A DNA stretch of 64,000 bases from the NCBI GenBank assembly GCA_017467905.1, contig JAFUKD010000024.1:25958-89957 (forward strand), in the 5' to 3' direction. Source of the stretch: Phascolarctobacterium sp. (lineage in GTDB: Bacteria; Bacillota; Negativicutes; Acidaminococcales; Acidaminococcaceae). The first letter of the stretch is position 1. Every line of letters begins with the position of its first letter. The position numbers and the translations under genes were made by a program. The notes under the pieces are model-generated. The model made no database searches and had not been told where the DNA came from. It worked only from the letters and a program-made list of their open reading frames with translations. Shown in pieces: positions 12,401-29,419 of the stretch.

Positions 12401-12820
12401 CTATTGCACTTTGAGTGCAGTGATAACCTTTTTGGTCAAATCTTTGCCACCAACAATCATTACATTAGCATTCACAACGCTATCCACCTTGTTAGCTTGT
12501 GCTACGCTCAAAATGGTTTCGCGAATCTTTTTGTTGATGGGGTCATACTTGCGTTGTTCAAACTTCGCCATTTGAGCATTCAGCTTGTTGGCAAGTTCAA
12601 TCTTTTCCTTATCGGTTGCAAGTACTTTTGCTTGTTCGTTGAACTGTGCTTGCAAACGAGTTTTTTCTGCAACAACTTCTTGAGCAACTTCCTTAATACC
12701 AGGATAGTTTGCCACAACAGCGTTCCAATCTACAAAACCAAGTTCAGCAGCGAAGGCACTGGTGCTAAAGCCCAAAGCCATCAACGCAGAACAAAGTAAG
12801 GTCATAAGTTTTTTCTTCAT
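12401..12820 (-). CDS. OmpH/Skp-family periplasmic chaperone
   Basis: 139 aa with a signal peptide ending FSTSAFA/AE. The coiled body (EKTRLQAQFNEQAKVLATDKEKIELANKLNAQMAKFEQRK) and C-terminal VMIVGGKDLTKKVI are typical of OmpH. Confidence 0.7.
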   Translation of the reverse strand: MKKKLMTLLCSALMALGFSTSAFAAELGFVDWNAVVANYPGIKEVAQEVVAEKTRLQAQFNEQAKVLATDKEKIELANKLNAQMAKFEQRKYDPINKKIRETILSVAQANKVDSVVNANVMIVGGKDLTKKVITALKVQ

Positions 12821-12837: not shown

Positions 12838-13284
12838 TTATTCAATTTCTTTCCAAATTTTCGCCATAATGGAAGCGTATTCGCCTTCGAGGAACTTAAC
12901 GGTTTCTGCAATGATGGCATTTACCAAAGCAGGGTCAAAAGCATCATCTTTAGAAACGATGCATGCGTTAAGAAGCAAATCGCCTTCATTAGTGATAATA
13001 AACTTAAACACGCGGTAATTATTATTCATTTCGTTAAGGAAAGCTGCAATTTTAGCGAAAGCTTCGCCTTTTACGAGAGCAGGAGCAAGTTGTACTTGTA
13101 AGAGTGCGTAAACGCTTTTGTCAAGAAGCACTGCGAACGGCAGAGTTTGACCTTTAACTTGCATCAAGCTACGGAACACAGCGGTTTCGTTTTCGTCATT
13201 GCGTTCTTCCACTTGGAAGCATTCAATTTTATTTTCAGCAAAGAAGTCTTTAAGTTTAGTAGTTTTTACATTAATATTTTCCAT
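12838..13284 (-). CDS. YbjN-like / secretion-chaperone-like small cytoplasmic protein
   Basis: 148 aa, acidic, no signal peptide. The fold assignment rests only on general resemblance to the YbjN family. Confidence 0.35.
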   Translation of the reverse strand: MENINVKTTKLKDFFAENKIECFQVEERNDENETAVFRSLMQVKGQTLPFAVLLDKSVYALLQVQLAPALVKGEAFAKIAAFLNEMNNNYRVFKFIITNEGDLLLNACIVSKDDAFDPALVNAIIAETVKFLEGEYASIMAKIWKEIE

Positions 13285-13306: not shown

Positions 13307-13333
13307 GGGTGGACGGTGGCAAAGCCACCGCCC
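13307..13333 (-). promoter_or_regulatory. GC-rich hairpin just after the autotransporter stop codon (attenuator or RNA-stability element)
   Basis: Minus strand reads GGGCGGTGGC TTT GCCACCGTCCACCC. No T-run follows before the next RBS. Confidence 0.4.
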
Positions 13334-13346
13334 GATTATTATTTTT

Positions 13347-16300
13347 TTAGAAAGTTACTCTCAAGCCTGCATCTACACGCCATTTTTCGGTTACATCGCC
13401 ACCGAAGCTGCGTTCATAGGTTGCATAAAGCAGGCTGTTATCGCTCAGCTTAGCAGTGCCGCCAAGTTGCATTTCGTACCAAGTATCGCCAAAGTCGATG
13501 TTAGTACCCTTAGTTTCTTCTGCAGTGTAGTTGGTATCGAAATCGCCACCAAATTCATGAGCCAAAGCAAGTTTAGCATAGTAGCTTGCTCTTTCAGTTC
13601 TTTGACCAATGCCAAAACCAACGCGACCGATGATGCTGTTGAAGTCGTCTTGTTCAACTTGCATGGTTGCAGTTTTGCCGTAAGCAGCGAGCATATCACT
13701 GGTTGCAGTATAGTCTTTGCCTTGAACGTGACCAATGGTCAATTCAACGCTGGGGTCAAAGTAGAAGCCATTGCCTTTTTCGATGCGTTTGCCGTATTCT
13801 GCACTGATGGAAGTACCCCAAGTTTTGAAGTCGCCTTCAAGTTTGTAGCCATCGTTGTTAAATACTTCGTATTCGTTTTTCAATTGGCTACCTTTGAGGA
13901 TCAAGCCAAGGTAACGACCGTCGCCATAATCTTTGTTACCGTAAACAGAGAGGCTGGTTACAGTCATTTCGCCTTCACCACCACGGTCATAGCGGCTATC
14001 GCCTTCATTATGGCTTACTGCTACGCCCACGTTCCAACCATTGCCAACTGCTTTGTCATAGCCAACTTGGTATGCTTTGTAGTTGGTGGAGAAGTTGGTG
14101 TTTTGAGCATCCATTTCGTATTTACCGCCATAGTATTTAGCCCAAACGCCACTTTCTTCTGTAGCAAGGCGTACATCGCCCATGCGTTGGAGCAGGTCGT
14201 TGCTTTCGCTTCGCCACATCATAACGGTGGAAGCCATTGCAGATTTAGCGCCTTTCATCATAGCAGTTTCGCTATCACCATAGATGTAACCACTGTCAGG
14301 ATATCTTGCAGTAATGGATTCTTCGTCCAAATCACCAGTACCATTAGCAAAGTTAATGCTACCAACTTTCAATGCGCTTGCAGATGTTACGATACCTTCT
14401 GCAATTTGAGCTTCACCGAGAATATTTTTAGCATTGCTAAGCGCATTACCGTTTTCATCTTTAGCAATCATCTTCGCTGCCAAAGCTTTAAGTACTTTAG
14501 CAACTTCTTCTTTATCGCTAGTACCAATGCTATTAGTTCTTACATTCACGACGGAACCGTCAGCAGCTTTTTGGATATTAACATTACCACCAAGAATATC
14601 GTTGTCTGCATTATGACGATAGATAAAGGTAGTTTCGCCACTGTAATCTTCAACGGTCAAACCAGCGTTACTATCTTCACTCATACGGATGAAGCCTTCT
14701 TTTTCACCAGAAGCAGCACCCGCAAGTTTATCAATGGTAGTCGCATCTTCTGCGGTGTTTTCCCAAATAGCACCGTTGGAGATTTGCAAGTTAAGAGCAG
14801 AACCGGAAGCAATATCATCATGGTAACCAGTCCATACACCGCCATCATCAAGCAGTACGGTCAAATCTACGCCACCAACACTGTTACCAGTCCATTTTGC
14901 ACCGTTGGCAATGGTTGCACCAAATTTATTGTCACCATTACCTGCATATTCAACATTATCGTTCAAAGCAGAATCAGCAGTAGTCAGGCTTACAGAAGAA
15001 GCATCTGTAGGCACAACCATTCTACGAGTAAGCTTCAACACTACGGGTACTGCTTGTTCTTCTTCAACAGGTTTAGCTACGCCAAGAACAATTTTGCCGT
15101 TGATAACTACGTCGTGGTCTTTCGCTTCTTCGTTAATCTTAATCTTACCGCCATCGGTAACTTTAATTGCTGCTTCATCACCTTTAGCACCAATTTCGCC
15201 ACCTGCAAGAGTTACAGTAGAGCCTTCGCCTACATTAACAGCAATCTTGCCATTGGTTTCAGTAATATCTACCAAACCGTTGATAGTTACGTTAGCTTTA
15301 TCTTCTGCGTGCAATACGCCATGGGTTTTATCGTTATCTTTGGCACTAAGTTTAACAATATTATCATCCTTATCAGTATGGATAGTAACATCTTTGCCCT
15401 CACCGCTTGCATAGATGGCAGAAGCCTTACCATTGTTGCCTACTGCTTCTGTTGTAATGATAATGTTGCCAGCATCCTTAATTGTTACACTGCCATCTAC
15501 CGCTTCAATGCCTTTAGCTTCCTTAGCTTCGCCATTAGTTTTACCAGTAACATCAAGGTCTTTACCTTTCATTTCAAGTACAAGATTACCACTCGCGGGA
15601 CCACCAATTAAGGTAGTATTTTCTGTGGATTCTTGCGGAGCGATAATTACTTTATCAACTTCTTCATGTTCAGGTTTAGCATTGCCTTGTTGGTCAATAT
15701 CAAGCTTGCCAAAATCAACTACATTATTACCACTTTCATCCTTGCTAACGATACTTTCGCCTTTATCATTTTTAAGGCTATCGTCGTTTGTCAAATCGCC
15801 ACCGATACCGCCAAATTCTTTTTCAACAGGTTTTTCTTCAGGTTCAACAGGTTTTTCCGGTTCAACAGGTTTATCCGGAGTGGTAGGTGTATCTTCGCCA
15901 CCTTGGTTACCACCTTGGTTATCGTCACCACTAGGAGGTACTTCCGGTGCTACATCCATTTGCAAGCTATCTTTATTCAGGCTACCTTGACCAGTAGAGC
16001 TACTAAAATCAATGTTGCCGGTATGTTTACCTACGCTAGAAGCAGTCAAGCCTTCGGCAATTTGAACGTACCCTTTCAAGTTGCGTTCGCCATCAACATA
16101 GTTAGTGTAGTACAGTTTTTCTGCAAGGTTATCTAAAGTTTCAGCAACTTGTACTTTATTCAAGATGTTATACCCATCAGTACTCAAGGTAATTTTAGAA
16201 CCTTTTTCAGCATGTTCAATGGTAGTAGTACCGCCGAGAACTTTGGTTACATTGTTATCGTCACGTCTGTAGATGATTGTTGTATTACCGCTGTAATTGG

Positions 16301-19300
16301 TAATTTTCAAGTTACCAGTTTCTTGTTTGCCCTTATCTTCGATACTTGTGTTCTTAAAGCTTACGCCATTACTATTTTCTGCATGGCTAGCATCATTATG
16401 ACCAATAAATGTTTTGTTACCAGTCATATCAATAAAGCCGTTGTCCCCGATAAAGGTGTAAACTTTACTATCAGCACCTTGGTCTTTGGTAATTGCGTTT
16501 TGCCAAAGTGCCTTGTCAGTCAGTGTCAAAGTTAAACCACCATTAATTTCACCAACATCGTCAGGTTCACGTTCTGCAATGTTAAATCCGTACCAAGTAG
16601 TACCTTCACCTTCCATGGTTACGTTCATTTCGCCGTCACTAAAGCCAGTCCAGTCTGCCCCATTTTTCATATACAGGGTAACATTGCCTTCTTGACCTTT
16701 AGTTACGCCATAACCGCGGTTATCGCCATAGTTACCAGTCCAGTAGCTTTCGTCACCGTTCAAGCCTACAGTAATGTAACCTAAAGTACCCATACCGCCG
16801 TTGGTTACAAAGTCACCAATAATGGTAGTCTTGCGTTCGCCAGCACCAGTAATATTTCCGTCCTCATCTTTAACTACGTTCACGTTTACAGTTGCAGCGT
16901 TATCGGAAACAAATTCACCATAAGCACGAATAGCGCACCATGCACCATTTTTAGCTTCAAGATGTCCGCCACCGATTTCAATGTCAGAAGCAACTGCACT
17001 AAGAGCTTCGTTGTTGCACTTATCCAAATCAGCAACGATATGTACCATACCATCAATTATTACTTTAGAACGTACACCATCAAGACCGTTCATGGTCTTA
17101 ATACCAGCACCTTCTTGACCATAAGTATCAGGGTCAACACCTGCTTGAGTGTCAATCCTCACAACTCCGCCTTCGCCATTTTTAATATGTACCACGCCAC
17201 CGCCGTTAGCAAATATGCCCGCAGAAGGACCAATACAATTTTCAGTAATGGTAATATTACCAGGATTATTAATTTCAACAGTACCGCCATCAATAGCACT
17301 GATTGCCGCACCGCTACCAATACTTGTACTATTGTTATTCAACACAAGTTCATTGCCATTTAAGTTGACAATAGTTTTATAGCTTTTATCTGGATTATCC
17401 AAATCACCACTTGCATAGATAATTGCACCTATATCTTTATGCCATGGGCCACCTTCAATACGGGTTGTATCATTTCGGGTGGTGTTTTCAGTATAAGTAA
17501 TGACTTGTTCATAAACTACAGGTTCAGTTACCACATCATCTTCGTCATCATCAGGTGTGCTACCACCATCAACAACCAAATCGCCAAGGCTACCCTTACC
17601 ACTACTTGCATCAAATTTAATATTACCATTCAAAGTACCGCTTTCTTTATCAAAGGCAACTTTTTCAAGTTCGCTATTAACGCTACCTTTATTATCAATA
17701 AAGCCACCATTTAAAAGTTCTGCTGTAATTGAAGAAGCAGTCAAACCTTCGCCAATTTTCAAATAACCTTTTAAATTATTTTCGCCATTTGTATAACCAG
17801 TATAGTAAAGTTTACCTGCTAAACTATTGAGTACTTCTTCTACATTATCAACTGTAATAGCACTGGAATAGTTAGTTTGTAAGGTAAGGTTACTACCTGC
17901 TGTAGCACTTATTATAGTGATATCCCCACTACCTTGGAAATTAGTAGGTTCACCTTCTTCATAAGAATATATTACGGTTGCATTATTGTGGAACTTATCA
18001 ATAAGAATATCACCACTATTTGCGGTTTGAATTATCCTAGCATCGGCATAATTCGCCGTCGTCCCCCTGCCAACACTCAAATCCGTGCCACGGAAGTTGG
18101 TTAAATGACTTGTTACACCAGGTTCGCCATTGGTAGAAACGTTAGTCCAAGTAGCACCATCAACCAAGTACAAATTAGCAGCACCACCTTCGTTAATGAC
18201 AGCACCATTAAAATAAGCGTAACTACCTTTCATACGTGCATCAATAGCAGCATTTTCACCACCAACATACCAGTCGCCATCAATCATACCACCAACTGGA
18301 ACGGTGTTGTGTGTATATGTAGGGTCATAGCCATAGGAAGGATAACCATTGCCGTCAAATTGGATATTGCCATTATAGGCTGCTAAAGAATAATACTTAT
18401 GCTCTGCATTACCTGTAGGTACAAGGATTTGACTTCCTTTATACGGATTGTAGTTAATGTTATTGTTGCCTACATTGTACCCTACCTTGACAGCCGCAAA
18501 GCTTCCCATTAAATCGCTACCAGATGCATCAACAGTAATACCATTACCGCAAACATCCATATAGACACTACCATTTATCTCAATAGAACTTCCATTTACA
18601 TCTAACAAAATACCCGAATTATTATAACGTGCATCAGTATTGTCAGGATTATCGCAGATACCCCATTGATTAGGTTCAGTACCTTTTATCTTCACATCAC
18701 CATTAATACTTAGATAGCCACCCAAATCTGATTCTTTATTACCATCACTTCTAGTAATTGCGATACCATTACCACCATGACCACCCACCATAGTAATATT
18801 TATCCCATGGCTAGATTGAATAGCTGCACTTAAACAATCAGTAGTATTACCAAGACCAGGTTCTATCCAAATTGCGTTTGTGCGTAAGTAACTGTCTTCC
18901 GGTAATACGGTTACGATATCAATAGTTTTATCACTACCAGCTGTACCAAGTATTGCCCAGTTATCAATCGCATCATTATAAATAGCAACCGGTTTATAAT
19001 CATAATCACCATTTATTTGTATGCGTACTAAATCAGGGTTATCAGTACCAAGCCAATCCTGATAACCATTTTCTAAATATAATCCAGTTACAATCTTCTT
19101 GTCTTCAAGTTTTATAGCTTCGCTTGTATCTATAACTCCGTTCGGTGTTGCATCAACAAAAACATCATTATCATACAAAGGTGCTTCGTGATTTTTAACA
19201 TTGGGGTACGCAGGACCAGTAGTTACTTGTTCATTGTCGTTATCATCGCCACCAACATCACCACCACCAATATTAAGGTTTTCGTCAGTAATATTGCCGG

Positions 19301-22079
19301 TAATGTTACCGCTACCTGCATTAGCACTAAAATCAATATTTACCTGTTTGGTAACACTTGAAGAAGTCAAGCCTTCGCTTAAACCAAGTGCAACAGCAGT
19401 AAGGTTACTACCGTTAGTAGCATAATCGTTATAGTAAAGCTTGCTTGCCAAAGCTCCTAAAATTTCATCAACAGTTGCAATATCTCTTGTAGCAATACCT
19501 TTATTGTTGGAGGTAATCATAGCAATTTGGCTACCAGTAGCAGCTTTATCAATCGTTACTGTACCACCAAGAATATCAGCATAACTATTTTCGCCATGAG
19601 CAGTATAGTTAACCTTAATGGCACCTTCCAAATTATCAATCAAAAGGTTGTCACTATTGGCAGTTTGCACAATGATACCTGCGGAATTAAGGTTACTGCC
19701 ACCTTTCAGTTTGGTTACGCGGCTTGTTTCGCCGTTGCCAATATCTTCATTATCTTGGCAGTAACGGCTGTTGTTGGCTTCGTTAGTCCAAGTTGCACCA
19801 TTTTGCAAGGTAAGGTTTACAGTACCACCATTATCGATAATACCTTTAATATGGCTATCGGCAGTAGCCAAGCCTAAGTTAATGGTTGCACCTTCAAGGG
19901 CGAAGATGTCACCATCAAGCTTAACATCATTTTCACCAACAGTTTTACCGTTAGCACCCATGTTCATATTAATAGTGCCTTCATAAGCAGCAAGGGTATA
20001 GTAACCGTAATCAGTGCCCGTAGGTACGGTAATGCTACCGCCTTTTTCAATGGTAACAGTAGACTTTTTACCATTAACGGTTACACCGTTGCCGTACACG
20101 TCCATATCTACGTTACCCTTTACTACAACGCTACTGTTATTTACATCCACAAGGATACCTGCATTGTTAAAACGGCTAATTACGTTTTCCGGATTAGCAC
20201 CAATACCCCAATCTTCTTTGGTAGCACCTTTGATGTTCAAATCACCTTTAATAACGATATCGCCACCCAAGGCAGAAGTTTTACTGTTTTCGCCCCAACG
20301 GTCAGTCTTTTGAATTGCTACACCGTTACCGCCATAGCCACCTTCCATTGTGATATTGGTAGCTTTAGCATCGATGGTAATACTTTCACCACCAACTATT
20401 GTGGGGTCAAGCCAAATTGCATTAGTTAAGCTATTACCACCATCCATAGTCTTAGTAAGGATTTCCAACTTACCGTTTTTAGCATTGATTTTAAGACCTG
20501 CATCCGTAGCATAAACACCTACGGGAGAAGCCACATTATTTCCCACCTGAATTTGCAAACCATTATTAGCATTAACGGTTGAAGATATGCCTTCTGCATA
20601 AATACCTGCAAGCACGTTGTTACCAAGATTGCCTTCATCATCTTTGGTAAGATTAATTACCGCATCAGTACCATTTACATTGGCAACGATTTGATTATTA
20701 ATTGCCGTGATATTCGTACCATTTTCTTTTTTAACAACAACATTTTCATTCGGTGTATCAGCCCATTCGCCAGTAGCAAGTTGTACTTTCACAAGCTTAC
20801 CTTCGGGAATAACATCAGTACGGATAATATCCCAAGTGTAGAGTTCCTCATACATAGCATTGGTAGCAAAGCTGTCAGTACCAAATACTTTGGGGTCAGT
20901 TGCGCCGTCAGTGTAGATGTGCAGCTTGTTGCCCACTTGTACCCACAGGCGTTTAGTGTTGTATTCCGCATCCAAGCGACCAAACCAGCCGGGAGCTGCT
21001 GCTTCGTGGTAAACTTCTTTCCAATTTTGGGGATTCGCACTAAGCAGATTGCTTACGGTAGTTTGGTAAACAGTTACGTCTACATTCTTGCCTGCCCTGC
21101 CAATGTTGTATGTCATTACATAGGCAGTACCGTTGGGCAGTACCTTCAAGCTACGGAACTCGCTTTTGGGAATGGTTTGCCCATCACGCACTTGCAATAA
21201 ATTTTCCGGCAAGGTAATTTGGCGAGTATCCATAAATCTTTTAGTTTCAGGATTTAAAGTTACTACGTCAATGGATGTTTCTGCATTGGAGTTTTCTGCA
21301 CCGTAGTATTGATAACCGCCAATGGCAGTTGCCAGCATATAGTTGTTATATACATTTAGTGCTACGGAGTCGGTGTTCTTACCCATTGTGGTATAGCCGT
21401 CATAGCTAAGTCTACCATCCGGCATAATAGCATATTTAATCAGGTAGGAAGGGTTATAAGGAGTGTAGCCACCTTGAGGGTTGCAGTTTGCAATAACGTA
21501 AAGGTTGCCATCAATGATTACGACACCTTCACCATGGAGCTGTGCCTTGTTACCAAAGGTAACACCACCATAAGTCTCTAAATCATTTTTCAAATCTCTG
21601 TAAAAAATAGTTTTGTCGCTAATAACACTATCTGTCACTTGCGCTACACCTACAGTACCCTCGTCATAGGACTCTACATAAACAAAATCTTTGTAACGTG
21701 CCACATCATGGGCATTAGTAGCCTTGCTAACGGTACCAGCTACTCTATTATTCCAATCACCTTGTGCATCAAAGGCATAACTGTTTTGCAAGTTAACGTT
21801 ACTGTATGTATATTGACGGATGTATAAAGTGCTTTTACCAGTAACAGGGTCAACGGTGTTATAAACCGCAGGGTCACCATTAAGACCGCTGATTACGGAT
21901 TTTATAGCAGTAATATCGCTAGAATTTATAAAAGAGCCTTCAATGGCACCCATATGGGATGTAACATAGTCAGAAGCGGTTACAATACCAAGCTTGGCAG
22001 CTTCCGCAGTGCTTCCCAATACGAAACCACCCAAGACAGTAGCCAGTATGGCGGCTTTTTTAGTAGAGCTTATCTTCAT
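13347..22079 (-). CDS. Giant type V autotransporter (2910 aa) with a modular repetitive passenger and a C-terminal beta-barrel translocator
   Basis: Signal peptide MKISSTKKAAILATVLGGFVLGSTAEA. Four passenger modules each end in LA.KLYY..Y..G..NLKGY..I.EGLT.SS. The C-terminal ~280 aa (MMWRSESNDLLQRMGDVR...YATYERSFGGDVTEKWRVDAGLRVTF) is an autotransporter beta-domain with a terminal Phe. Confidence 0.85.
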   Translation of the reverse strand: MKISSTKKAAILATVLGGFVLGSTAEAAKLGIVTASDYVTSHMGAIEGSFINSSDITAIKSVISGLNGDPAVYNTVDPVTGKSTLYIRQYTYSNVNLQNSYAFDAQGDWNNRVAGTVSKATNAHDVARYKDFVYVESYDEGTVGVAQVTDSVISDKTIFYRDLKNDLETYGGVTFGNKAQLHGEGVVIIDGNLYVIANCNPQGGYTPYNPSYLIKYAIMPDGRLSYDGYTTMGKNTDSVALNVYNNYMLATAIGGYQYYGAENSNAETSIDVVTLNPETKRFMDTRQITLPENLLQVRDGQTIPKSEFRSLKVLPNGTAYVMTYNIGRAGKNVDVTVYQTTVSNLLSANPQNWKEVYHEAAAPGWFGRLDAEYNTKRLWVQVGNKLHIYTDGATDPKVFGTDSFATNAMYEELYTWDIIRTDVIPEGKLVKVQLATGEWADTPNENVVVKKENGTNITAINNQIVANVNGTDAVINLTKDDEGNLGNNVLAGIYAEGISSTVNANNGLQIQVGNNVASPVGVYATDAGLKINAKNGKLEILTKTMDGGNSLTNAIWLDPTIVGGESITIDAKATNITMEGGYGGNGVAIQKTDRWGENSKTSALGGDIVIKGDLNIKGATKEDWGIGANPENVISRFNNAGILVDVNNSSVVVKGNVDMDVYGNGVTVNGKKSTVTIEKGGSITVPTGTDYGYYTLAAYEGTINMNMGANGKTVGENDVKLDGDIFALEGATINLGLATADSHIKGIIDNGGTVNLTLQNGATWTNEANNSRYCQDNEDIGNGETSRVTKLKGGSNLNSAGIIVQTANSDNLLIDNLEGAIKVNYTAHGENSYADILGGTVTIDKAATGSQIAMITSNNKGIATRDIATVDEILGALASKLYYNDYATNGSNLTAVALGLSEGLTSSSVTKQVNIDFSANAGSGNITGNITDENLNIGGGDVGGDDNDNEQVTTGPAYPNVKNHEAPLYDNDVFVDATPNGVIDTSEAIKLEDKKIVTGLYLENGYQDWLGTDNPDLVRIQINGDYDYKPVAIYNDAIDNWAILGTAGSDKTIDIVTVLPEDSYLRTNAIWIEPGLGNTTDCLSAAIQSSHGINITMVGGHGGNGIAITRSDGNKESDLGGYLSINGDVKIKGTEPNQWGICDNPDNTDARYNNSGILLDVNGSSIEINGSVYMDVCGNGITVDASGSDLMGSFAAVKVGYNVGNNNINYNPYKGSQILVPTGNAEHKYYSLAAYNGNIQFDGNGYPSYGYDPTYTHNTVPVGGMIDGDWYVGGENAAIDARMKGSYAYFNGAVINEGGAANLYLVDGATWTNVSTNGEPGVTSHLTNFRGTDLSVGRGTTANYADARIIQTANSGDILIDKFHNNATVIYSYEEGEPTNFQGSGDITIISATAGSNLTLQTNYSSAITVDNVEEVLNSLAGKLYYTGYTNGENNLKGYLKIGEGLTASSITAELLNGGFIDNKGSVNSELEKVAFDKESGTLNGNIKFDASSGKGSLGDLVVDGGSTPDDDEDDVVTEPVVYEQVITYTENTTRNDTTRIEGGPWHKDIGAIIYASGDLDNPDKSYKTIVNLNGNELVLNNNSTSIGSGAAISAIDGGTVEINNPGNITITENCIGPSAGIFANGGGVVHIKNGEGGVVRIDTQAGVDPDTYGQEGAGIKTMNGLDGVRSKVIIDGMVHIVADLDKCNNEALSAVASDIEIGGGHLEAKNGAWCAIRAYGEFVSDNAATVNVNVVKDEDGNITGAGERKTTIIGDFVTNGGMGTLGYITVGLNGDESYWTGNYGDNRGYGVTKGQEGNVTLYMKNGADWTGFSDGEMNVTMEGEGTTWYGFNIAEREPDDVGEINGGLTLTLTDKALWQNAITKDQGADSKVYTFIGDNGFIDMTGNKTFIGHNDASHAENSNGVSFKNTSIEDKGKQETGNLKITNYSGNTTIIYRRDDNNVTKVLGGTTTIEHAEKGSKITLSTDGYNILNKVQVAETLDNLAEKLYYTNYVDGERNLKGYVQIAEGLTASSVGKHTGNIDFSSSTGQGSLNKDSLQMDVAPEVPPSGDDNQGGNQGGEDTPTTPDKPVEPEKPVEPEEKPVEKEFGGIGGDLTNDDSLKNDKGESIVSKDESGNNVVDFGKLDIDQQGNAKPEHEEVDKVIIAPQESTENTTLIGGPASGNLVLEMKGKDLDVTGKTNGEAKEAKGIEAVDGSVTIKDAGNIIITTEAVGNNGKASAIYASGEGKDVTIHTDKDDNIVKLSAKDNDKTHGVLHAEDKANVTINGLVDITETNGKIAVNVGEGSTVTLAGGEIGAKGDEAAIKVTDGGKIKINEEAKDHDVVINGKIVLGVAKPVEEEQAVPVVLKLTRRMVVPTDASSVSLTTADSALNDNVEYAGNGDNKFGATIANGAKWTGNSVGGVDLTVLLDDGGVWTGYHDDIASGSALNLQISNGAIWENTAEDATTIDKLAGAASGEKEGFIRMSEDSNAGLTVEDYSGETTFIYRHNADNDILGGNVNIQKAADGSVVNVRTNSIGTSDKEEVAKVLKALAAKMIAKDENGNALSNAKNILGEAQIAEGIVTSASALKVGSINFANGTGDLDEESITARYPDSGYIYGDSETAMMKGAKSAMASTVMMWRSESNDLLQRMGDVRLATEESGVWAKYYGGKYEMDAQNTNFSTNYKAYQVGYDKAVGNGWNVGVAVSHNEGDSRYDRGGEGEMTVTSLSVYGNKDYGDGRYLGLILKGSQLKNEYEVFNNDGYKLEGDFKTWGTSISAEYGKRIEKGNGFYFDPSVELTIGHVQGKDYTATSDMLAAYGKTATMQVEQDDFNSIIGRVGFGIGQRTERASYYAKLALAHEFGGDFDTNYTAEETKGTNIDFGDTWYEMQLGGTAKLSDNSLLYATYERSFGGDVTEKWRVDAGLRVTF

Positions 22080-22094
22080 AACGTCTTTCCTTTC

Positions 22095-24731
22095 TTAGAA
22101 TTCACATTTCAAAGTTGCATAATAGGTTCGTCCTTGTACGGGATATTCAGGATTGATATAACTACCGTTAGCAAGTGCTATCTTTTGTTCCGGACCTTTG
22201 TTGAACACGTCGTTGCAGCCTACTGCCAGTTGCCAACCGTCTTTCATTTTCCACTTGATACCGGTGTTGAATACCAAGAGGTCATCAGTAGGCAAGCCAT
22301 CAGGGAACTCACCAACACCACCTTTTACACGATAGGTATAGTACGCATCGGTGTAGTGAGCTTCTGCAAAAATGTCAAGGTTGTTTTCAGGACGGTAAGT
22401 TAAACGCACGTTGCCTTCCCATTCAGGTTGGAAGGTAGGCCATGTATCTACATAATCATAAGAGCCATCTTTCTTACTCTTAGTTTTGATGTCGGTGTAG
22501 GTTGCTTGCAAATCAAGGTCAAACTTGCTCCAGTTAAAGTTAGTTTGTACTTCCACACCATGGGCCTTACCCTTGTTATCATTCATGTAAGACCAGTAAT
22601 CCTTACCAACACGTTGCAGTTGAAGCATATTTTCAGAATCACGCCAGAAGTAGGTTAAAGAGGTCTTGTTGTAACCGCCAAGGGTTTCGCCATGCCACAG
22701 TGCGCTGATGTCAAACTGCTTGCCTTCTTCGGGAACAGGGAAGGTGGATTCGCGACCATCATCAGTAGGAGCGGGCAGGATGCCTGCGCCGTCACCTGCG
22801 ATTTCGTACATGTTCAGCAAGCGGTAGTAAGTACCACCAGTCATACGCATGGTAAAGTTGTTGTCAAATTCTTTTTTAAGTGCTAATTGCCAAGTGAACT
22901 TGTCGTCAGTTTGTTCATCTTCCGGTGTAATCCAACCAAAAAGCTTATCGTTACCCGCTGTAAAGGTTGCTTTGTTACTGTAGCCGGTTATGGTAGAACG
23001 GTTATATTTAACGCTGGGTGTCAAGAACCAAGAGGACTTATCATCCAAGGTAATGGTGTCTTGCAGTTGGATGTTAAGCATTTCCTGTTCGTACTTATCA
23101 CGAATTTGTCCAAAGATAGTGTCGATGTTGTTATCGGTAATTTCCCTATCAGACATGCCGGAACCATCAACATCCATGTTTTCGCGAGAGAAGTTGATTT
23201 GGAAATCAAGCATATTATTGTCGCTAATCTTGTAAGTACCGTCAATTTGAGCATTGTACTTATCAGATTTATATTCGCTGAATTCACGTAAGGGTACAAG
23301 TTTATCTTGTTCGGTAGGATTGTTTATATTTTCAGCACGATAGCTTTTATCGGACTTGGTGTAGTCAAGCATCCAGCCCCATTCAAGCTTGCCCACGTTG
23401 TTGCGGTTTTGGAGCAAAAGTTCCTTGGTATCAATCTTTTGACGACGGCTATCGTAGGGATAGTTATCGTACAAATCTACACCCCAACCCACATTAGCAT
23501 TTGCAAAGGAATCACCATACAAGCTATCCGGCAAATGGCGGTCTACCTTGTTCCAAGCAGCCTTAACCATCCAGTTTTCATTTTGCCATTTCAAAATGCT
23601 GTTGATGTTTTCGTAATCGTTGTACTGACGCCAACGTTTGGGATTTTGTGCTTGGGCAAGTTTCTTACGGTTGTCCTCTATAGACTGATTTTCTGCACTC
23701 AGTACGTCGTTAGTACTAGGATTCAAGTTTGTTGCAATTTTGTTTGCTTCACCTTGGAGGGCAGTTGCTTTATCATTATCATTCATAGCCTCCCATTGTG
23801 TTTGGTTATACCCCATATGATACAACTGCTCATAAGTTAAAAGACTTTGGGATAATTTTTGGTAATAAGCCTTTTTAAAACCATCATCAGATTGGATATA
23901 AGCATCCCAAGCTGCTTCGCCTATTTTGCCATCAAAAGAAAATTCTTCAAATGTGTCCCCCAAATTTAAAGTATCCTTATAGTTATTAAAGCTATCTGTT
24001 TTAAAAGTATTTATGGTTTTAAGGCTTTCATTAATCTGGTTATTTATGGCAGTAATCGCGCCCGCTGTAGTATAGTTTTCATAACTAAAGTCGCCATCAC
24101 TGCTTTCATAGTTCCAGCCAAACATCAAGCTGCCATCACCTAAAGGTGCAGTAATTTCTGTGGCACCCTTCTTGCCACCATAGCTGCTCTTACCCAGCTC
24201 TACGCTTACATTGGTTTTATCAGGCTTCTTGGTAACGATGTTGATAACGCCACCAATAAAGGTGCCTGCAAAACGAGCAGGAATGTAGCCACGGTAAACT
24301 TCAATGCGTTCCACGTTGGCTACGGGGATGGTAGAAAGGTCTACCGCGCTGTCGCCGCCAAGGTTACTAAGCACGCCGTCAATGAACACGCCAACCTGTG
24401 CCGCAGTGGAGCCACGCACGGTTACTGTGGTGTATTGTCCTTTACCGTTTACTTCGCGTACATGTACGCCTGGTACCTTGCGCATTAAATCAGGCAAAGT
24501 TTTTTGTTCGCCCTTGTAATCATCAGGGCGAATAACGGTTACGCTACCGGGGGAAAGTTTTGTTTCCCAGTCGGGACGTGCCGCTTCTACGGTAATGCCT
24601 TCCAAATCAAAGGCAAGTTCTGCCCTTGTGGCAGCTTCTTCCGCAAAGGCATCACTTGCGCCAAAAATGCAGCAGCCCAGTACGAAAGCCATAGCCAATG
24701 TTAAGTTTTTGTTGTTCTTATGTTTTTTCAT
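22095..24731 (-). CDS. TonB-dependent outer-membrane receptor (BtuB-like context, unusually long)
   Basis: Signal peptide, then a plug domain (ITVEAARP...VHVREVNGKGQYTTVTVRGSTAAQVGVFIDGV...ERIEVYRG) and a barrel ending YYATLKCEF. Start set at MKKHKNNK, 9 nt after GGAG. Lies downstream of the putative cobalamin riboswitch. Confidence 0.8.
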   Translation of the reverse strand: MKKHKNNKNLTLAMAFVLGCCIFGASDAFAEEAATRAELAFDLEGITVEAARPDWETKLSPGSVTVIRPDDYKGEQKTLPDLMRKVPGVHVREVNGKGQYTTVTVRGSTAAQVGVFIDGVLSNLGGDSAVDLSTIPVANVERIEVYRGYIPARFAGTFIGGVINIVTKKPDKTNVSVELGKSSYGGKKGATEITAPLGDGSLMFGWNYESSDGDFSYENYTTAGAITAINNQINESLKTINTFKTDSFNNYKDTLNLGDTFEEFSFDGKIGEAAWDAYIQSDDGFKKAYYQKLSQSLLTYEQLYHMGYNQTQWEAMNDNDKATALQGEANKIATNLNPSTNDVLSAENQSIEDNRKKLAQAQNPKRWRQYNDYENINSILKWQNENWMVKAAWNKVDRHLPDSLYGDSFANANVGWGVDLYDNYPYDSRRQKIDTKELLLQNRNNVGKLEWGWMLDYTKSDKSYRAENINNPTEQDKLVPLREFSEYKSDKYNAQIDGTYKISDNNMLDFQINFSRENMDVDGSGMSDREITDNNIDTIFGQIRDKYEQEMLNIQLQDTITLDDKSSWFLTPSVKYNRSTITGYSNKATFTAGNDKLFGWITPEDEQTDDKFTWQLALKKEFDNNFTMRMTGGTYYRLLNMYEIAGDGAGILPAPTDDGRESTFPVPEEGKQFDISALWHGETLGGYNKTSLTYFWRDSENMLQLQRVGKDYWSYMNDNKGKAHGVEVQTNFNWSKFDLDLQATYTDIKTKSKKDGSYDYVDTWPTFQPEWEGNVRLTYRPENNLDIFAEAHYTDAYYTYRVKGGVGEFPDGLPTDDLLVFNTGIKWKMKDGWQLAVGCNDVFNKGPEQKIALANGSYINPEYPVQGRTYYATLKCEF

Positions 24732-24798
24732 AGACAACATCTCCAATCAATCATTCATACATAATTTGGGATTACTAAATAAAAAAAGAACCTTCCAA

Positions 24799-24978
24799 TT
24801 ATCTGCTTATACCTTGGCTTGACTTTTTCAAATCGGCTTGCTCTTCAGCCATACCATGGTAAAAGAAGACTTCCCTTGTAAGTTCAAGCAGGAAGCTTCT
24901 GTTAACAGTAACAGTCTCCTGCTCGGACTCATTCAAGAAGTCCAGATAATTTTCAAGTTCTTCGTTGGTAATAATCAT
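24799..24978 (-). CDS. Small hypothetical protein (59 aa), first ORF after the riboswitch
   Basis: An internal ATG is preceded by a strong RBS (GGAGGAGGTGTGTGT ATG). The longer track ORF would overlap the riboswitch expression platform. Confidence 0.3.
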   Translation of the reverse strand: MIITNEELENYLDFLNESEQETVTVNRSFLLELTREVFFYHGMAEEQADLKKSSQGISR

Positions 24979-25029
24979 ACACACACCTCCTCCAAGACAG
25001 GGATATCCCTTAACTTGTACCTCTCCCAT

Positions 25030-25190
25030 AATACGCAGGAGGACGGTATGTGAAACGGCAGCGCTCTGGCTTAGGTCATCGCCACTTTATCCCTTGCGAG
25101 GGTTAACGATAAAGCAGCTCTCATCACAGTTGCGGTACAGTGTTGGAATTTCAGCAAACTTTCCTGCCAATTACACCTTAATATAGGTGT
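25030..25190 (-). promoter_or_regulatory. Cobalamin (B12) riboswitch candidate
   Basis: Minus strand reads GGCAGGAAAGTTTGCTGAAATTCCAACACTGTACCGCAACTGTGATGA...CCTAAGCCAGAGCGCTGCC. It matches the conserved GGGAA / GGTGAAAATCC / CCCGCAACTGT elements, a B12-box-like AGCCAG..GCTGCC, and P1 pairing GGCAG/CTGCC. The downstream CCTCCTGC can pair with the GGAGGAGG RBS. Confidence 0.65.
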
Positions 25191-25258
25191 TTGACTATTA
25201 TGAAATTATTATTAGTATATAATATTATTTTATATATAATGTCTTTTAGTGATAATAA

Positions 25259-25282
25259 ACTATATAGTAACTATATAGTCAA
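25259..25282 (-). promoter_or_regulatory. Tandem palindromic 10-mers (ACTATATAGT x2) overlapping a TTGACT -35-like hexamer upstream of the riboswitch
   Basis: ACTATATAGT at 25259-25268 and 25270-25279 is its own reverse complement. Minus-strand TTGACT lies at 25282-25277. Confidence 0.3.
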
Positions 25283-25420
25283 GTGATTTTCAGTAAAAAT
25301 TTTACAATTTAACAGTTTTTAAATAAAAAAAAAAAAAATGTTACTGTAAGATTATAAACAAAGCACTTTCGCCCCCGTGTAGCACTACTTTATTTTATTG
25401 TATTCTTTACCTTTATAAAC

Positions 25421-25470
25421 AAAAGCAGCAGTTATTCGTAGCGTTCCGAGTAGCTGCTGCTTTTTGTTTT
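25421..25470. terminator. Rho-independent terminator
   Basis: AAAAGCAGCAG...CTGCTGCTTTTT long hairpin flanked by A and T runs, just downstream of the 25472..25732 gene. Confidence 0.65.
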
Positions 25471-25471
25471 T

Positions 25472-25732
25472 CTAATATTCATCAGGAAACATAATCATAA
25501 TTTCCGTATAGTCATTGCCATCTTCACTTTCTGCATTGATCCATATCTTGCCTTCAGAAGTTAGGTATGAAGCAAGGATACGGTCTTTGTAATGTAATGA
25601 TTTATCATTCAAATCTTTATCATCATCAGGGGTAATGCCCCAATCCTTATGCAGAAACCTTGCTAAAGCCTGTATTACTTCCATTTGAAATCCATAATCC
25701 ATTTCTGCCGCATTGTGTACGCCATTGGTCAT
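25472..25732 (-). CDS. Hypothetical small acidic protein
   Basis: 86-aa ORF followed by a clean terminator. No motif recognised. Confidence 0.45.
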   Translation of the reverse strand: MTNGVHNAAEMDYGFQMEVIQALARFLHKDWGITPDDDKDLNDKSLHYKDRILASYLTSEGKIWINAESEDGNDYTEIMIMFPDEY

Positions 25733-25904
25733 ATAAACATTGCATTAGGAAATGTGTTCATCCTCATGCCCCTTTCATTGGTGAATATTAACTTACAAAA
25801 ATTTTATCGTGTATGGTTCCAGAAGTCAGCGCATGGACATAAAAAACCACTATAGACTAAAAACTACGTAATATTTTTATACAGTTTTATATTTACCACA
25901 CAAT

Positions 25905-26513
25905 CTATATATTATTTTCATATTCTGCTACCTTCCTGTAGAATGTAGTACTAGTCCATTCATACTTTTTCATTAGACTCTTTGCTGTACACTTCTTAGC
26001 CTTCCATTCTTTGTAATCATCTTCCCAAGTTTCTGGGAAAGGATATTTCTTTCTACCAAAATGTACTCCTCTTGCCTTAGCAGCTACTATACCTTCTTCT
26101 TGCCGTTTCCGAATATTCTCACGTTCCACCTGTGCTTGATAAGCCATCACTTCTATAAGGATATTGTTTATAAGTTCCATTATTCCCTGTCCTGCTTCAC
26201 CATAGTCTACCATGCTCGTTGGTAAGTCCAAAATCCTGACAATTACCTTCTTCTCTTTCAAGTCAGTAAGTAACCTCTTAATATCATTCTTGTTTCTGCC
26301 CAACCTATCAAGGCTATGGATATAGAGAGTATCCCCTTGCCTAATGTTATATAACAGGCTTTCCAACCCAGGACGATTAGTATCCTTGCCAGACATCTTA
26401 TCAACGATTATATCCCTTTCGTTAGGAATGTATTTTTTCAAGCTGTCAATCTGACGATCCAAGTTTTGCTCCTTTGTAGACACTCTTGCGTAACCGAAGA
26501 TTTTGTTATTCAT
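25905..26513 (-). CDS. Small serine recombinase (resolvase/invertase family)
   Basis: MNNKIFGYARVSTKEQNLDRQ catalytic N-terminus, with DTLYIHSLDRLGRN and a C-terminal HTH. Start set at the internal ATG after an AGGAGG RBS. Confidence 0.85.
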   Translation of the reverse strand: MNNKIFGYARVSTKEQNLDRQIDSLKKYIPNERDIIVDKMSGKDTNRPGLESLLYNIRQGDTLYIHSLDRLGRNKNDIKRLLTDLKEKKVIVRILDLPTSMVDYGEAGQGIMELINNILIEVMAYQAQVERENIRKRQEEGIVAAKARGVHFGRKKYPFPETWEDDYKEWKAKKCTAKSLMKKYEWTSTTFYRKVAEYENNI

Positions 26514-26679
26514 TTTATTGCACCTCCTAAAAAAATATTCACAATAAGTGCAACAAAACCTACTTCCACCTAAAGTTGTATGCAACATTTGTAAAAAAAA
26601 AGAAAAAGGGACATAGATATCATTCAAAATACCTATGTCCCAAAAGGTGTACTTTTTGTTGTACCTATTTAGTTATTAA

Positions 26680-27660
26680 TCATCCAAAAATGGACTTGAA
26701 AATGCTAGTAATTGTCCCGATGACAGCCCCAGCAACACCACCAAGAATTTTCCCAGGCACGCCCAGAATCTTGCCACCGACTTCACTAGCTACCTCAATG
26801 TAATCGAATACCACATCGACAAAATCCTTGGTAGTTTCCTCACCATAATCATCTTCCTCATCATCGTGTTCCCAATTTTCTTTTTTTGTATTGATTTTAT
26901 CAGCCAATGCCAATCGCTTTTCACGAGGAATGATTTGAACAATGCTATGAAGTAGCTTAGTAAGATTGTAAGGCTTGCATTGATTTTTTCCTTCCTCACA
27001 ATAGCCTGCACAATAACAAATAGGAGTAATATCTAATCCGGTTCCGTCTTTAACTCGTGCTTGAACTGAAGCAGCTTTCCTTTTCAAGTATTGTGTCAGT
27101 ACTTCGTCAGGCTTGTTTGCTTCTTTATGCCAATGATTACCCTTCATGGCTACGTCTGCTTGGTTCAAGCCAATGATGATTCGCTTGCTCGCTTCACTAC
27201 CTAGGCAAGGCACGAGTACTTTGTTGATGAGGTTATAGGTTGTTCCCAAGTCTTTACTGGATGAATCCATGATTACTACCACCAGGTCGATAATAGGTTT
27301 ACCATCTTCCCCAATCTCATTGAGCTTAGCAATAATGTCTCTTGTAATACGCTTGTCCCTTTCAACGCCATCACCCAATCCTGGACTATCCCAGATGGTA
27401 AGGTTATCTAATACGAAATTAGAGATGGTAGTTGTTTCAGGATCTACGCCTGTCCCAACCTTTGCGACGTTCATATCAAACAAAGCATTGATAGTAGAAC
27501 TCTTACCGCTTCCAGTTGCACCAACAAGCATAATGTTAACCTGTTTACTTCGTACTTGAAGCAGTCTTGATAGCTTAGCAGCTTTATCTGCTTCGCTCAA
27601 ATCTGAGTTCATAATGTCTTCTTCCAAAAGTTCGTAGATATTTTTCATTTCTTGTTCCAT
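26680..27660 (-). CDS. P-loop GTPase (YfjP/YeeP-like small GTPase domain) with an acidic linker and a C-terminal glycine-zipper membrane segment
   Basis: G1 is GATGSGKSS, G3 is WDSPGLGDG and G4 is GLNQAD. The C-terminus reads EVGGKILGVPGKILGGVAGAVIGTITSIFKSIFG. Confidence 0.6.
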   Translation of the reverse strand: MEQEMKNIYELLEEDIMNSDLSEADKAAKLSRLLQVRSKQVNIMLVGATGSGKSSTINALFDMNVAKVGTGVDPETTTISNFVLDNLTIWDSPGLGDGVERDKRITRDIIAKLNEIGEDGKPIIDLVVVIMDSSSKDLGTTYNLINKVLVPCLGSEASKRIIIGLNQADVAMKGNHWHKEANKPDEVLTQYLKRKAASVQARVKDGTGLDITPICYCAGYCEEGKNQCKPYNLTKLLHSIVQIIPREKRLALADKINTKKENWEHDDEEDDYGEETTKDFVDVVFDYIEVASEVGGKILGVPGKILGGVAGAVIGTITSIFKSIFG

Positions 27661-27764
27661 AGCATTACCTCTTTTCTAAAAATAAATTGACCTCTTACTT
27701 TGATAAGTAAGAGGTCTCTATTTTTAGAATATATAATTATTTTTGTTTTTGTTGCGTTAAATTC

Positions 27765-28370
27765 TTATACGCTATAAATCAGAGTTCTTTTTACCTTAGT
27801 CGCTTTCAACACACCTTGTCGTCTCAATCTTCTAAGAACATTAACAGCTGTAGTTTCCCAATAATCCTCATCTATGAGTTTATAGATAAGCTCCCAACGT
27901 TCCATTTCCCCATTTGGAGCTTCATTAAGTAATTCTAAAACTCTTCGACAGCAATACGTTCTACCTGCATGAATTGGTCCAATGGGACGTTTACCCTTTG
28001 CGTTTGCTTGTGCTAATAACAGATCTAAACCTTTACGATACCTCTTACAATGATTTTTAGTCATCGGTACCAATAACTTCATACCATTATTGTATTTCGA
28101 ATGGGATCCTGAACAGCTGAGTTTACCTTCTTCAACGATATAATCATATGGTGCATACGCAAACAGGCAATAGCTTGGAAGTTGATTACCATAACCTCCA
28201 GTTACCGAAGACCACGTAGCATCTTTGAGCAACGAAACGTCAATTTCCATTTGACCACTAAATGCGGTACCACGAGTAACTAAAACTTTCAAGCCTTTAC
28301 TTGAAGCACCTGCTTCATTCAACACTAAGTTATTATAATCAATGCCTGCTTCTTTTTCTTCTTTAATCAT
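27765..28370 (-). CDS. Hypothetical protein with a possible C-terminal winged-helix domain
   Basis: 201-aa ORF. The C-terminal RRVLELLNEAPNGEMERWELIYKLID...VLRRLRRQGVL looks wHTH-like. The N-terminal domain is unassigned. Confidence 0.4.
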   Translation of the reverse strand: MIKEEKEAGIDYNNLVLNEAGASSKGLKVLVTRGTAFSGQMEIDVSLLKDATWSSVTGGYGNQLPSYCLFAYAPYDYIVEEGKLSCSGSHSKYNNGMKLLVPMTKNHCKRYRKGLDLLLAQANAKGKRPIGPIHAGRTYCCRRVLELLNEAPNGEMERWELIYKLIDEDYWETTAVNVLRRLRRQGVLKATKVKRTLIYSV

Positions 28371-28785
28371 TTTTCATTCTCCTTTGAATATCTTTTATTC
28401 GCAGGGCATTTAAATACTTCTGATTTCCCAAAGAAAAACAAAAAATCATGCCCTTAAAACATCTTCCCAAAATGGGTACAGCTATACACAAAAAACGTCA
28501 TTTTGAGAATGACCATCTTTTGTAAGCTCATTTTAATGCATGATACTATCGTTTTTTATTTGATTAGCTTACGTTCATATTTTATACTATCAGACCTTGT
28601 TTGTCAATTTGACTTTTGAATTTATCACCACTTAAAACCTGATTTCTTGAATCTTTAATGAACTTTATTTTCTTCTTTACCGGGTACGAACAGTCACAAT
28701 ATTTCTTAAACGGTTCAAAAAAGCTAACAAATAATTAAAAGGTAAATAATTTACCAACAATATAATTAGAAAGGAATCAGTAACT

Positions 28786-29055
28786 ATGCCAAGACGTGTA
28801 TGTAAGCTAACTGATAAAAGCCAAAGAAATAATGTAGATCTCCGGAACTATAGCCAAACAATCATAGATACCATCAATAAAATTGCACCCAATAAAAACC
28901 CTATAGTAAGCCAGTATTCGTTCAGCACTGATGTGCTCACGCACTCAGAAGCAGTGAAGATTGGATTTGCATTAGCAATGATACCAGAGATTGCTAAGTT
29001 AGGTATATGGGTAAAAACCTTTCGTTTATTCGATGGAAAAATAGTAGAGGAGTAA
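28786..29055 (+). CDS. Hypothetical protein
   Basis: 89-aa ORF with an AGAAAGGAA RBS. First gene of a short plus-strand pair. Confidence 0.4.
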   Translation: MPRRVCKLTDKSQRNNVDLRNYSQTIIDTINKIAPNKNPIVSQYSFSTDVLTHSEAVKIGFALAMIPEIAKLGIWVKTFRLFDGKIVEE

Positions 29056-29068
29056 AAGGAGAAACATA

Positions 29069-29272
29069 ATGACAGCAGTAATGAACAGAAAGTTTCTAAC
29101 AATCGACGAAATTCAAAAGCAGTACCTACCAGTGAGCAAAAAAAGAATTAGAGCATTGGTAAAGCAATATCTTAACGTGAAAATAATTGGGGGAAGAATC
29201 TTCGTAGAACGAAGCCAATTAGAAAACCTTCTAAGCTCTACGGAACAACATAACTTTCCGATAGCAATATAA
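29069..29272 (+). CDS. Excisionase/MerR-like helix-turn-helix DNA-binding protein
   Basis: 67 aa. FLTIDEIQKQYLPVSKKRIRALVKQ...IGGRIFVERSQLENLL resembles the HTH_17/Xis type. RBS is AAAGGAGAAA. Confidence 0.5.
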   Translation: MTAVMNRKFLTIDEIQKQYLPVSKKRIRALVKQYLNVKIIGGRIFVERSQLENLLSSTEQHNFPIAI

Positions 29273-29410: not shown

Positions 29411-29419
29411 ATATGTTAT

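Follow-up and report, generated by a model that had tools for sequence, protein, structure and literature searches.

Gut and oral communities are shaped by competition for vitamin B12 and its analogues, and, to our knowledge, the BtuG/BtuH proteins, described as exclusive to Bacteroidota, constitute the only well-understood machinery for high-affinity capture of B12 at the cell surface. Homologs of BtuG have been reported exclusively in Bacteroidetes (Wexler 2018, PMC6143338), and TonB transporters capped by a lipoprotein also seem to be exclusive to this group (Abellon-Ruiz 2023, PMC10404256). Here, we analyze a locus in a 64,000-nucleotide (nt) stretch of DNA from an uncultured gut Phascolarctobacterium (contig JAFUKD010000024.1, positions 25,958 to 89,957 of the forward strand; hereafter the window), where a riboswitch-like leader is followed by a small open reading frame (ORF), a gene for a TonB-dependent receptor, and a gene for an autotransporter of 2910 amino acids (aa). 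The interpretation that we favor, with moderate confidence, is that of a corrinoid (vitamin B12) acquisition operon in which a predicted β-propeller at the N-terminus of the autotransporter serves as capture module. Close homologs likewise assign the locus to uncultured Phascolarctobacterium, within the Negativicutes. The operon is encoded on the minus strand, all coordinates are positions in the window, and labels of the type L001 denote related loci.

The first-pass annotation of the window had pointed to a leader resembling a B12 riboswitch, and all motifs quoted for it were found again on the minus strand, within 25046-25190, a structured region recognized by motifs and covariance models. 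The aptamer elements comprise a B12 box, AAGCCAGAGCGCUGCC, the segments GCUGAAAUUCC and CGCAACUGUGA, and a long P6-extension hairpin; the core elements, i.e., the B12 box, a hairpin of the GGUGAAAUCC type and a GCCACUG-type segment, are all found. Two results speak against a cobalamin riboswitch at this position. No cobalamin family reaches its Rfam gathering threshold anywhere in the 64-kb window, a tRNA being the sole match, and the leader stays under the thresholds of RF00174, RF01482 and RF01689 alike; in a permissive scan of 24700-25500, the AdoCbl model RF01482 aligns over its full length (25017-25190) with 32.4 bits (E = 5.5e-4), relative to a gathering score of 50. Because the leader fails the Rfam gathering thresholds, the cobalamin assignment was tested comparatively, with models rebuilt from homologs.

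In alignments of 14-17 homologous leaders, the columns of the B12 box and the core are invariant or nearly so, and RNAalifold applied to 14 aligned leaders, with B12 box and core invariant, detects compensatory changes for 16 of its 24 pairs. A CAG-CUG pairing proposed by RNAalifold (A2 columns 39-42 with 66-70) clashes with the P5 register of Rfam, and was replaced by an Rfam-consistent P5 in a first covariance model, R1, which combines Rfam-consistent helices with the long P6-extension hairpin. R1 gives 99 matches across the related loci and scores the window leader at 104.9 bits. In the R1 alignment, which comprises 91 distinct sequences, compensatory double changes occur at 31 of the 35 pairs, and 81.7% of the cells are paired compared with 29-45% in controls with slid partners; both counts come from an alignment fitted to the model and lean towards structure. 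A second model, R2, was built from 17 homologous leaders, with the window and its three closest relatives excluded; L029, L066 and L009, all above the RF00174 or AdoCbl-II thresholds, are among its seeds. With filters off and both strands of the 64 kb searched, R2 returns one match, at 25046-25177 on the minus strand, with 84 bits and E ~3e-26, the runner-up reaching 8.4 bits. We assign a divergent aptamer of the cobalamin type to this interval, based on the sub-threshold Rfam match together with R1 and R2. The annotation had called for a check against the Rfam cobalamin covariance model; at the level of the gathering cut-off this check failed, and membership in the clan was instead established by homology and covariation. 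On this comparative evidence, the leader is almost certainly a real, divergent cobalamin-clan riboswitch.

Some leaders of the window type do pass Rfam thresholds, with RF00174 scores of 33.7 (L060), 42 (L029) and 51.7 bits (L066) and an AdoCbl-II score of 41.3 bits (L009), and in distant orthologous loci of Sporomusaceae and Selenomonas, classical RF00174 riboswitches of 99-116 bits lie directly upstream of the receptor gene. The leaders of L001, L004, L006, L010, L014, L015, L017 and L063 are missed at the gathering thresholds of Rfam release 15, and score 95-123 bits with R1. These leaders represent a sub-lineage of cobalamin riboswitches that is detected just sporadically by Rfam models, and that features a conserved inner hairpin of the CCUCUCGCAAAGGGA type in the P6 extension. 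An extra inserted hairpin is present in the leaders of L005, L011 and L017. The RF01482 alignment of a 3' hairpin hints at an L5-L13 kissing loop; no conserved complementarity of these loops could be found among the relatives.

With a receptor profile, 78 loci were retrieved from 185,579 species genomes; they belong to Phascolarctobacterium, Dialister, Selenomonas, Schwartzia, Sporomusa, Anaerospora, other Acidaminococcaceae and Fusobacterium, and 76 of them could be evaluated for the riboswitch and 69 for the propeller gene. In 56 of 76 loci, a same-strand cobalamin riboswitch is located upstream of the receptor gene at a distance of no more than 1.5 kb, and at 7 further loci it is located farther upstream, heading longer operons; at the 13 loci (of 76) where no riboswitch was found upstream, the association that we propose is not upheld. 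In 59 of 69 loci, tblastn places the start of a homolog of the first ~400-500 residues of the autotransporter no more than 400 nt from the receptor stop. The genomic context is in this respect that of BtuG, with a propeller gene adjoining the receptor gene and a riboswitch upstream, and the pair of receptor and propeller is widespread in Negativicutes and Fusobacterium, usually behind a cobalamin riboswitch.

The homologous domain is found in two contexts, either in giant autotransporters of 1282 to >3300 aa, where the gap to the receptor gene is usually 6-60 nt, or in stand-alone form, as a protein of 413-467 aa encoded in genomes of Sporomusa, Anaerospora, Fusobacterium and the P. faecium type (L029 4022-5263, L040 8615-9883, L063 5475-6731 and L077 12901-14157; proteins P0155, P0163 and P0150). 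What follows the domain is variable, and the conserved partner of the receptor is therefore the propeller domain and not the stalk. The stand-alone forms of Fusobacterium and of the P. faecium type begin with MSENLFAY..., the Sporomusa forms have a Sec signal that is cleaved just ahead of the ENLF motif, and a conserved C-terminal amphipathic helix (...SKSLASHIRLAKEARELAEKAKK) ends all stand-alone forms. In Dialister, the order is riboswitch, a 1471-aa autotransporter, the receptor, and a propeller-tipped autotransporter of >3300 aa (L007, L009 4915-13000; also L012 and L016), and riboswitch-headed autotransporters are therefore not limited to the window. A further Dialister autotransporter, of 1541 aa, is encoded just upstream of the riboswitch, which in L009 is the AdoCbl-II match given above. 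Two to three tandem cobalamin riboswitch matches are present within 1.5 kb upstream of the receptor gene in L028, L030, L032, L035, L037, L054, L055, L056, L059, L064, L066, L071 and L072, i.e., in Sporomusaceae, Acidaminococcaceae and other Negativicutes.

The autotransporter gene of the window (13347-22079) was delineated from its ORF, the junction sequence and two family matches. The PF03797 barrel covers residues 2645-2889 (122.5 bits vs. a cut-off of 26), and TIGR01414 matches residues 2469-2910 with 136 bits; linker and C-terminal β-barrel translocator correspond to 13350-14675. A signal-like N-terminus, as read from the translation, a passenger and the C-terminal barrel are combined in one polypeptide, which is the organization of type Va autotransporters. 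The N-terminus reads MKISSTKKAAILATVLGGFVLGSTAEAA/KLG and is devoid of cysteine, i.e., it is not a lipoprotein signal with a lipobox cysteine. The passenger stalk (approximately residues 426-2468; 14676-20804) is rich in Gly, Asn and Thr, as assessed by sequence reading and motif search, and displays a motif, ...KLYY...EGLT(A/S)SS..., every ~550 aa, with KLYY at residues 880, 1423 and 1988. No Pfam family matches the stalk, and a self-BLAST of the passenger gives no off-diagonal alignments; its description as repetitive refers to recurring short motifs only.

The N-terminal passenger domain (approximately residues 29-425; 20805-21995) is a member of an orphan family, and had been suggested to contain repeated β-strand blades in its first ~420 residues. 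In agreement with this suggestion, AlphaFold2 predicts an all-β domain with ~30 strands (predicted local distance difference test, pLDDT, 87.1; predicted template modeling score, pTM, 0.87), and an independent model of the stand-alone homolog from F. nucleatum is also all-β (pLDDT 85.3). In a Foldseek search of the PDB with the window model, cobalamin-bound BtuG2 (8bai) comes first, followed by 8bmy, BT2095 (8okv), 8bmx_D and BT1954, with target-normalized template modeling scores (TM-scores) of 0.61-0.66 for the BtuG family and E-values down to 6.9e-9; 8bmx is a BtuB-lipoprotein complex. For the Fusobacterium model, ranks 1-14 are all occupied by the BtuG family (BtuG1/2/3 and BT2095; target-normalized TM-score ≤0.71, E down to 1.8e-9), the XusB xenosiderophore-binding lipoproteins are next, and generic propellers of the lactonase type appear from rank 28. 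A seven-bladed arrangement is indicated by the predicted strands and the BtuG ranking (TM-score 0.61-0.71) rather than by a direct count of blades, and the domain very probably has a propeller fold.

By sequence or profile, the N-terminal domain matches nothing in Pfam, NCBIfam or the PDB; the sole marginal match, to retinol-binding protein 2 (E = 0.016), was dismissed as chance. A word-indexed search for homologs gave 26, then 79 matches, and an exhaustive profile search of 1.84 billion representatives gave 401 clusters, many of them of 1200-4778 aa with the domain at the N-terminus. Those family members that carry a name are all annotated as 'hypothetical' or generically as 'autotransporter'. 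Invariant residues of the domain, in the numbering of the autotransporter, are HGE 182-184, N200, GG-Q 254-257, R309, Y320, Y338 and W353. Two distant members, P0318 and P0376, are fused to Big_2 immunoglobulin-like domains instead of autotransporter stalks, which suggests other modes of surface display.

With respect to the ligand, we consider corrinoid binding by the propeller slightly better than an even prospect, and several observations weigh against it. Generic seven-bladed propellers (6-phosphogluconolactonases) match the window model about as well as BtuG (target-normalized TM-score ~0.64), and fold similarity alone is therefore no proof of ligand specificity. Among the PDB sequences, no BtuG chain is matched at E ≤10 by a profile made from 35 members of the family, and the identity to BtuG in structural alignments is 9-15%. 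Furthermore, the propeller is located at the far tip of a passenger of ~2000 aa, and a BtuG-style lid on the receptor is therefore excluded unless the passenger is processed. The stand-alone forms have a signal of the signal-peptidase-I type or none, in no case one with a lipobox Cys; for the homologs from Fusobacterium and P. faecium no signal peptide is recognizable, which puts their surface exposure in question. The earlier guess that the N-terminal ~420 residues form a BtuG-type propeller is upheld at the fold level, where BtuG tops the Foldseek ranking for two models, and not with respect to sequence homology or a lipoprotein anchor.

The same domain could belong to a protein with a different task. 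According to this alternative, the operon is regulated by B12 and the receptor imports corrinoids, but the propeller autotransporter is an adhesin or docking protein, directed at the host B12 carriers intrinsic factor or haptocorrin, at B12-producing neighbors or at mucus, or the propeller binds loops of the receptor in a structural role. The passenger is indeed very long, repetitive and similar to adhesin autotransporters, with the propeller far from the membrane; the likeness to BtuG is one of fold at low identity with no sequence link, and the Big_2 domains of the distant family members are of an adhesin type. However, it is the propeller and not the stalk that is conserved next to the receptor, the stand-alone forms of ~415-460 aa do without an adhesin stalk, and BtuG structures outrank other propellers for the stand-alone model. 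We consider the adhesin alternative unlikely, and retain the propeller as the candidate capture module.

The receptor gene (22095-24746), a putative corrinoid importer as judged from the Pfam plug domain, profile relatives and riboswitch context, encodes 883 aa from a TTG at 24746 or 878 aa from an ATG at 24731; the ATG is the likely start. The plug domain (PF07715; 68.4 bits, E = 9e-19) bears out the proposal that a TonB-dependent receptor follows the small ORF. Many close homologs have an entry for the barrel family PF00593, which is absent from the Pfam output of the window receptor at E ≤0.01. The best NCBIfam matches are two BtuB equivalogs (TIGR01779/NF007926; the best being TonB-B12), with 104.3 bits vs. 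599.7 and 89.4 bits vs. 836; that these cut-offs are missed by far, and that the plug (residues ~37-221) is the sole aligned part, is a point against a BtuB-like importer. In a profile comparison, the solved proteins nearest to the receptor are BtuB from E. coli (3e-20) and BtuB1 from B. thetaiotaomicron (8blw; 6e-10). The functional assignment is made mainly because of regulon evidence, i.e., the upstream cobalamin riboswitches, and on these grounds the receptor probably imports corrinoids.

A plug-restricted similarity to BtuB would also suit a system in which receptor and propeller carried another substrate, such as a siderophore, heme, a cobalt chelate or a corrinoid precursor, and the riboswitch coupled its uptake to B12 status. 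Siderophore receptors match the plug too, the XusB propellers are next in structure after BtuG, and the P. faecium-type locus is neighbored by Peripla_BP_2 and ExbB-ExbD-TonB genes, which are typical of iron and B12 uptake alike. This alternative appears improbable, however, given that cobalamin riboswitches precede the receptor family in most loci and in several bacterial families, that the plug is closest, among named and solved proteins, to BtuB, and that B12-bound BtuG proteins head the structural neighbors of the partner.

The autotransporter ATG at 22079 is located 15 nt past the receptor stop and behind AAGGAAAG. No hairpin plus T-run was found between the two genes by the terminator scan, and a consensus scan of 12.5-26 kb shows no promoter-like or terminator-like match at the junction; the first-pass annotation had read the same gap, with its own ribosome-binding site and no terminator, from the sequence. 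We describe the genes as an operon because of the 15-nt gap and the same tight junction from receptor to propeller gene across 59 of 69 loci, an arrangement that makes co-transcription highly likely. 

Upstream of the receptor gene, the expression platform (24976-25052) is defined by a minimum-free-energy fold, in which the anti-Shine-Dalgarno strand CACAUACC.UCCUCC (25052-25038) pairs with GGAGGA.GGUGUGUG (24993-24980), just before an ATG at 24978. The 3' flank of P1 and the anti-Shine-Dalgarno sequence are thereby paired with the Shine-Dalgarno sequence GGAGGAGG and the spacer of the small ORF. The fold has a free energy of -30.7 kcal/mol and a z-score of -1.9, and an equivalent sequestering helix with changed sequence is formed in L001 (z -3.0), L060 (z -2.8) and L004 (z -2.5); the computed fold and its recurrence are in agreement with the earlier suggestion that the leader is able to sequester the ribosome-binding site of the first small ORF. 

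This first cistron (24799-24978; MIITNEELENYLDFL...) encodes 59 aa from the ATG after GGAGGAGG, a start favored over that of the mechanical ORF call, which begins earlier, at 25029. Its product has no match in Pfam or NCBIfam. Homologous ORFs of 58-66 aa are located between riboswitch and receptor in L001, L003, L004-6, L010, L011-17, L024, L058 and L060 (L001 539-733, L060 9758-9937, L003 9656-9832, L010 4235-4411, L004 1628-1828 and L011 9545-9787). The small proteins share the pattern xYxELKxxLxxF....VT(I/V)xRDxLxxLxxE... over ~58-66 aa, and in Phascolarctobacterium loci they are always found at this position. An attenuator after the small ORF, at the T-run of ~24770-24785, was considered and not adopted; the fold is a weak 4-bp stem with a z-score of +0.5.

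A third alternative, that the riboswitch governs the small ORF alone, or perhaps also the receptor, and that the autotransporter is expressed from its own internal promoter, with adjacency reflecting genome organization, would suit a switch that appears translational and acts on the 59-aa cistron, the T-run 3' of this cistron and the sigma-70-like hexamer matches within coding regions, but is very improbable given a 15-nt junction devoid of hairpin plus T-run, comparably tight junctions kept in dozens of loci, a mere 4-bp stem at the T-run, and promoter-like and terminator-like matches in 12.5-26 kb that show no excess over shuffled sequence (45 vs. 35.7 ± 6.7 and 10 vs. 9.8 ± 3.0, respectively).

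At the 5' border of the operon, a hairpin of 18 bp with a T-run (25421-25464 (-), terminator scan) marks the terminator of a preceding 86-aa ORF, and downstream of it an AT-rich region (25227-25297 (-)) contains two candidate sigma-70-like promoters, TTTACT-16-TATAGT (25297-25270) and TTATCA-17-TAAAAT (25255-25227), each with 9 of 12 matches in a consensus scan, which is weak evidence. Farther upstream (25472-29776 (-)), the 86-aa ORF is accompanied by genes resembling those for a serine recombinase (25905-26627) and a GTPase (26680-27660), and by a DUF3846 gene (29420-29776); together they may represent the edge of a mobile element. At the 3' border, a GC-rich hairpin, GGCGGTGGC-TTT-GCCACCGTCC, follows the autotransporter stop (13315-13335 (-); sequence and terminator scan); it has no T-run, and whether the operon ends here is uncertain. 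On the same strand 3' of the autotransporter are a YbjN-like gene, a gene for an OmpH/Skp-like chaperone and, farther on, a gene for a 1403-aa TamB-family protein (1227-5438, 12401-12820 and 12838-13284 (-)), i.e., genes with functions in outer-membrane biogenesis. An OmpH gene is also found 5' of the receptor in the P. faecium-type locus L079. The tRNA that is the sole Rfam match in the window (58901-58986 (-); 60.9 bits) is 86 nt long, with a long variable arm.

Based on these data, we propose that a divergent cobalamin riboswitch in the 5' leader controls the operon. In the repressing state, the strand 3' of the aptamer would pair with the Shine-Dalgarno sequence of the 59-aa cistron; the pairing is computed, and the assignment of this state to the ligand-bound form is our proposal. 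Lack of translation of the first cistron would then lower the expression of the tightly packed downstream genes, over 11.4 kb, by polarity or mRNA decay. The long TonB-dependent receptor with its BtuB-like plug would bring corrinoids through the outer membrane. Its extracellular corrinoid-capture module would be the first ~400 residues of the autotransporter, which are predicted to form a β-propeller resembling Bacteroides BtuG and would be displayed on the tip of the type V passenger, or released from it, instead of acting as a lipoprotein lid.

More tentatively, and as a possibility rather than an expectation, the related loci may represent an unrecognized B12-piracy system in diderm Firmicutes (Phascolarctobacterium, Dialister, Selenomonas, Sporomusa and relatives) and Fusobacterium, which would combine an orphan BtuG-like propeller, a dedicated long receptor and a riboswitch variant largely missed by Rfam, the propeller being placed in many lineages at the tip of an autotransporter of 1300-4800 aa that might work as a 'fishing rod' or a cleaved carrier. 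Phascolarctobacterium and Dialister convert succinate to propionate, which needs the B12-dependent methylmalonyl-CoA mutase, and Fusobacterium nucleatum is a tumor-associated pathobiont. If confirmed, the module would be the first to place a BtuG-type capture protein outside Bacteroidota and an autotransporter under riboswitch control. Hundreds of 'hypothetical' proteins and the N-termini of giant autotransporters would gain a testable function, and the module would carry partner-assisted TonB-dependent uptake beyond Bacteroidota, add vitamin scavenging to the roles of type V secretion, and define a riboswitch sub-class for addition to covariance models. In the full-text literature (open-access and bioRxiv), we found no paper that ties autotransporters to corrinoids or cobalamin riboswitches, or BtuG to Negativicutes or Fusobacterium.

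Compared with the cobalamin clan CL00101 (RF00174, RF01482 and RF01689), the window leader shares the B12 box, a GGUGA-AAUCC-type hairpin, the GCAACUG core, the P1 closing helix, a variable P6 extension and a site upstream of corrinoid-uptake genes, but differs in that it scores under all three gathering thresholds and belongs to the sub-lineage with the CCUCUCGCAAAGGGA-type inner hairpin in P6.

For the proposed mode of capture, the closest parallels come from heme acquisition. HxuA/HxuB/HxuC of Haemophilus serve in the use of heme-haemopexin, and Hbp of E. coli is a heme-binding autotransporter; HxuA, an exoprotein of the two-partner-secretion type, is no classical autotransporter. In these systems, as in that of the window, an extracellular protein secreted by a type V route is proposed to capture a scarce cofactor and to hand it to a TonB-dependent receptor whose gene is nearby or which acts together with it; the ligand and the folds are different, however, and riboswitch control is absent.

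The BtuB-BtuG system of Bacteroides resembles the window locus in that a B12 riboswitch precedes the gene of a TonB-dependent transporter and the gene of an extracytoplasmic β-propeller is adjacent, and the propeller fold predicted here is closest to cobalamin-bound BtuG structures. In contrast to BtuG, the propeller of the present loci has no detectable sequence similarity to that family, is no lipoprotein (its signal is of the Sec type with no lipobox Cys, or is absent), and in the window forms the N-terminal part of a type Va autotransporter, which makes it membrane-distal instead of a lid. The receptor is also longer, ~880-970 aa compared with ~690 aa in the solved chain of B. thetaiotaomicron BtuB1 (8blw), and the hosts are diderm Firmicutes and Fusobacteria. 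The system is BtuBG-like in outline but does not belong to the BtuG family, given that the tests for homology and for a lipoprotein anchor failed and the geometry differs. Partner-assisted, riboswitch-controlled TonB-dependent uptake of B12 is thus the known frame, and the new elements are the orphan propeller family, its type V display, the host phyla and the under-modeled riboswitch sub-class.

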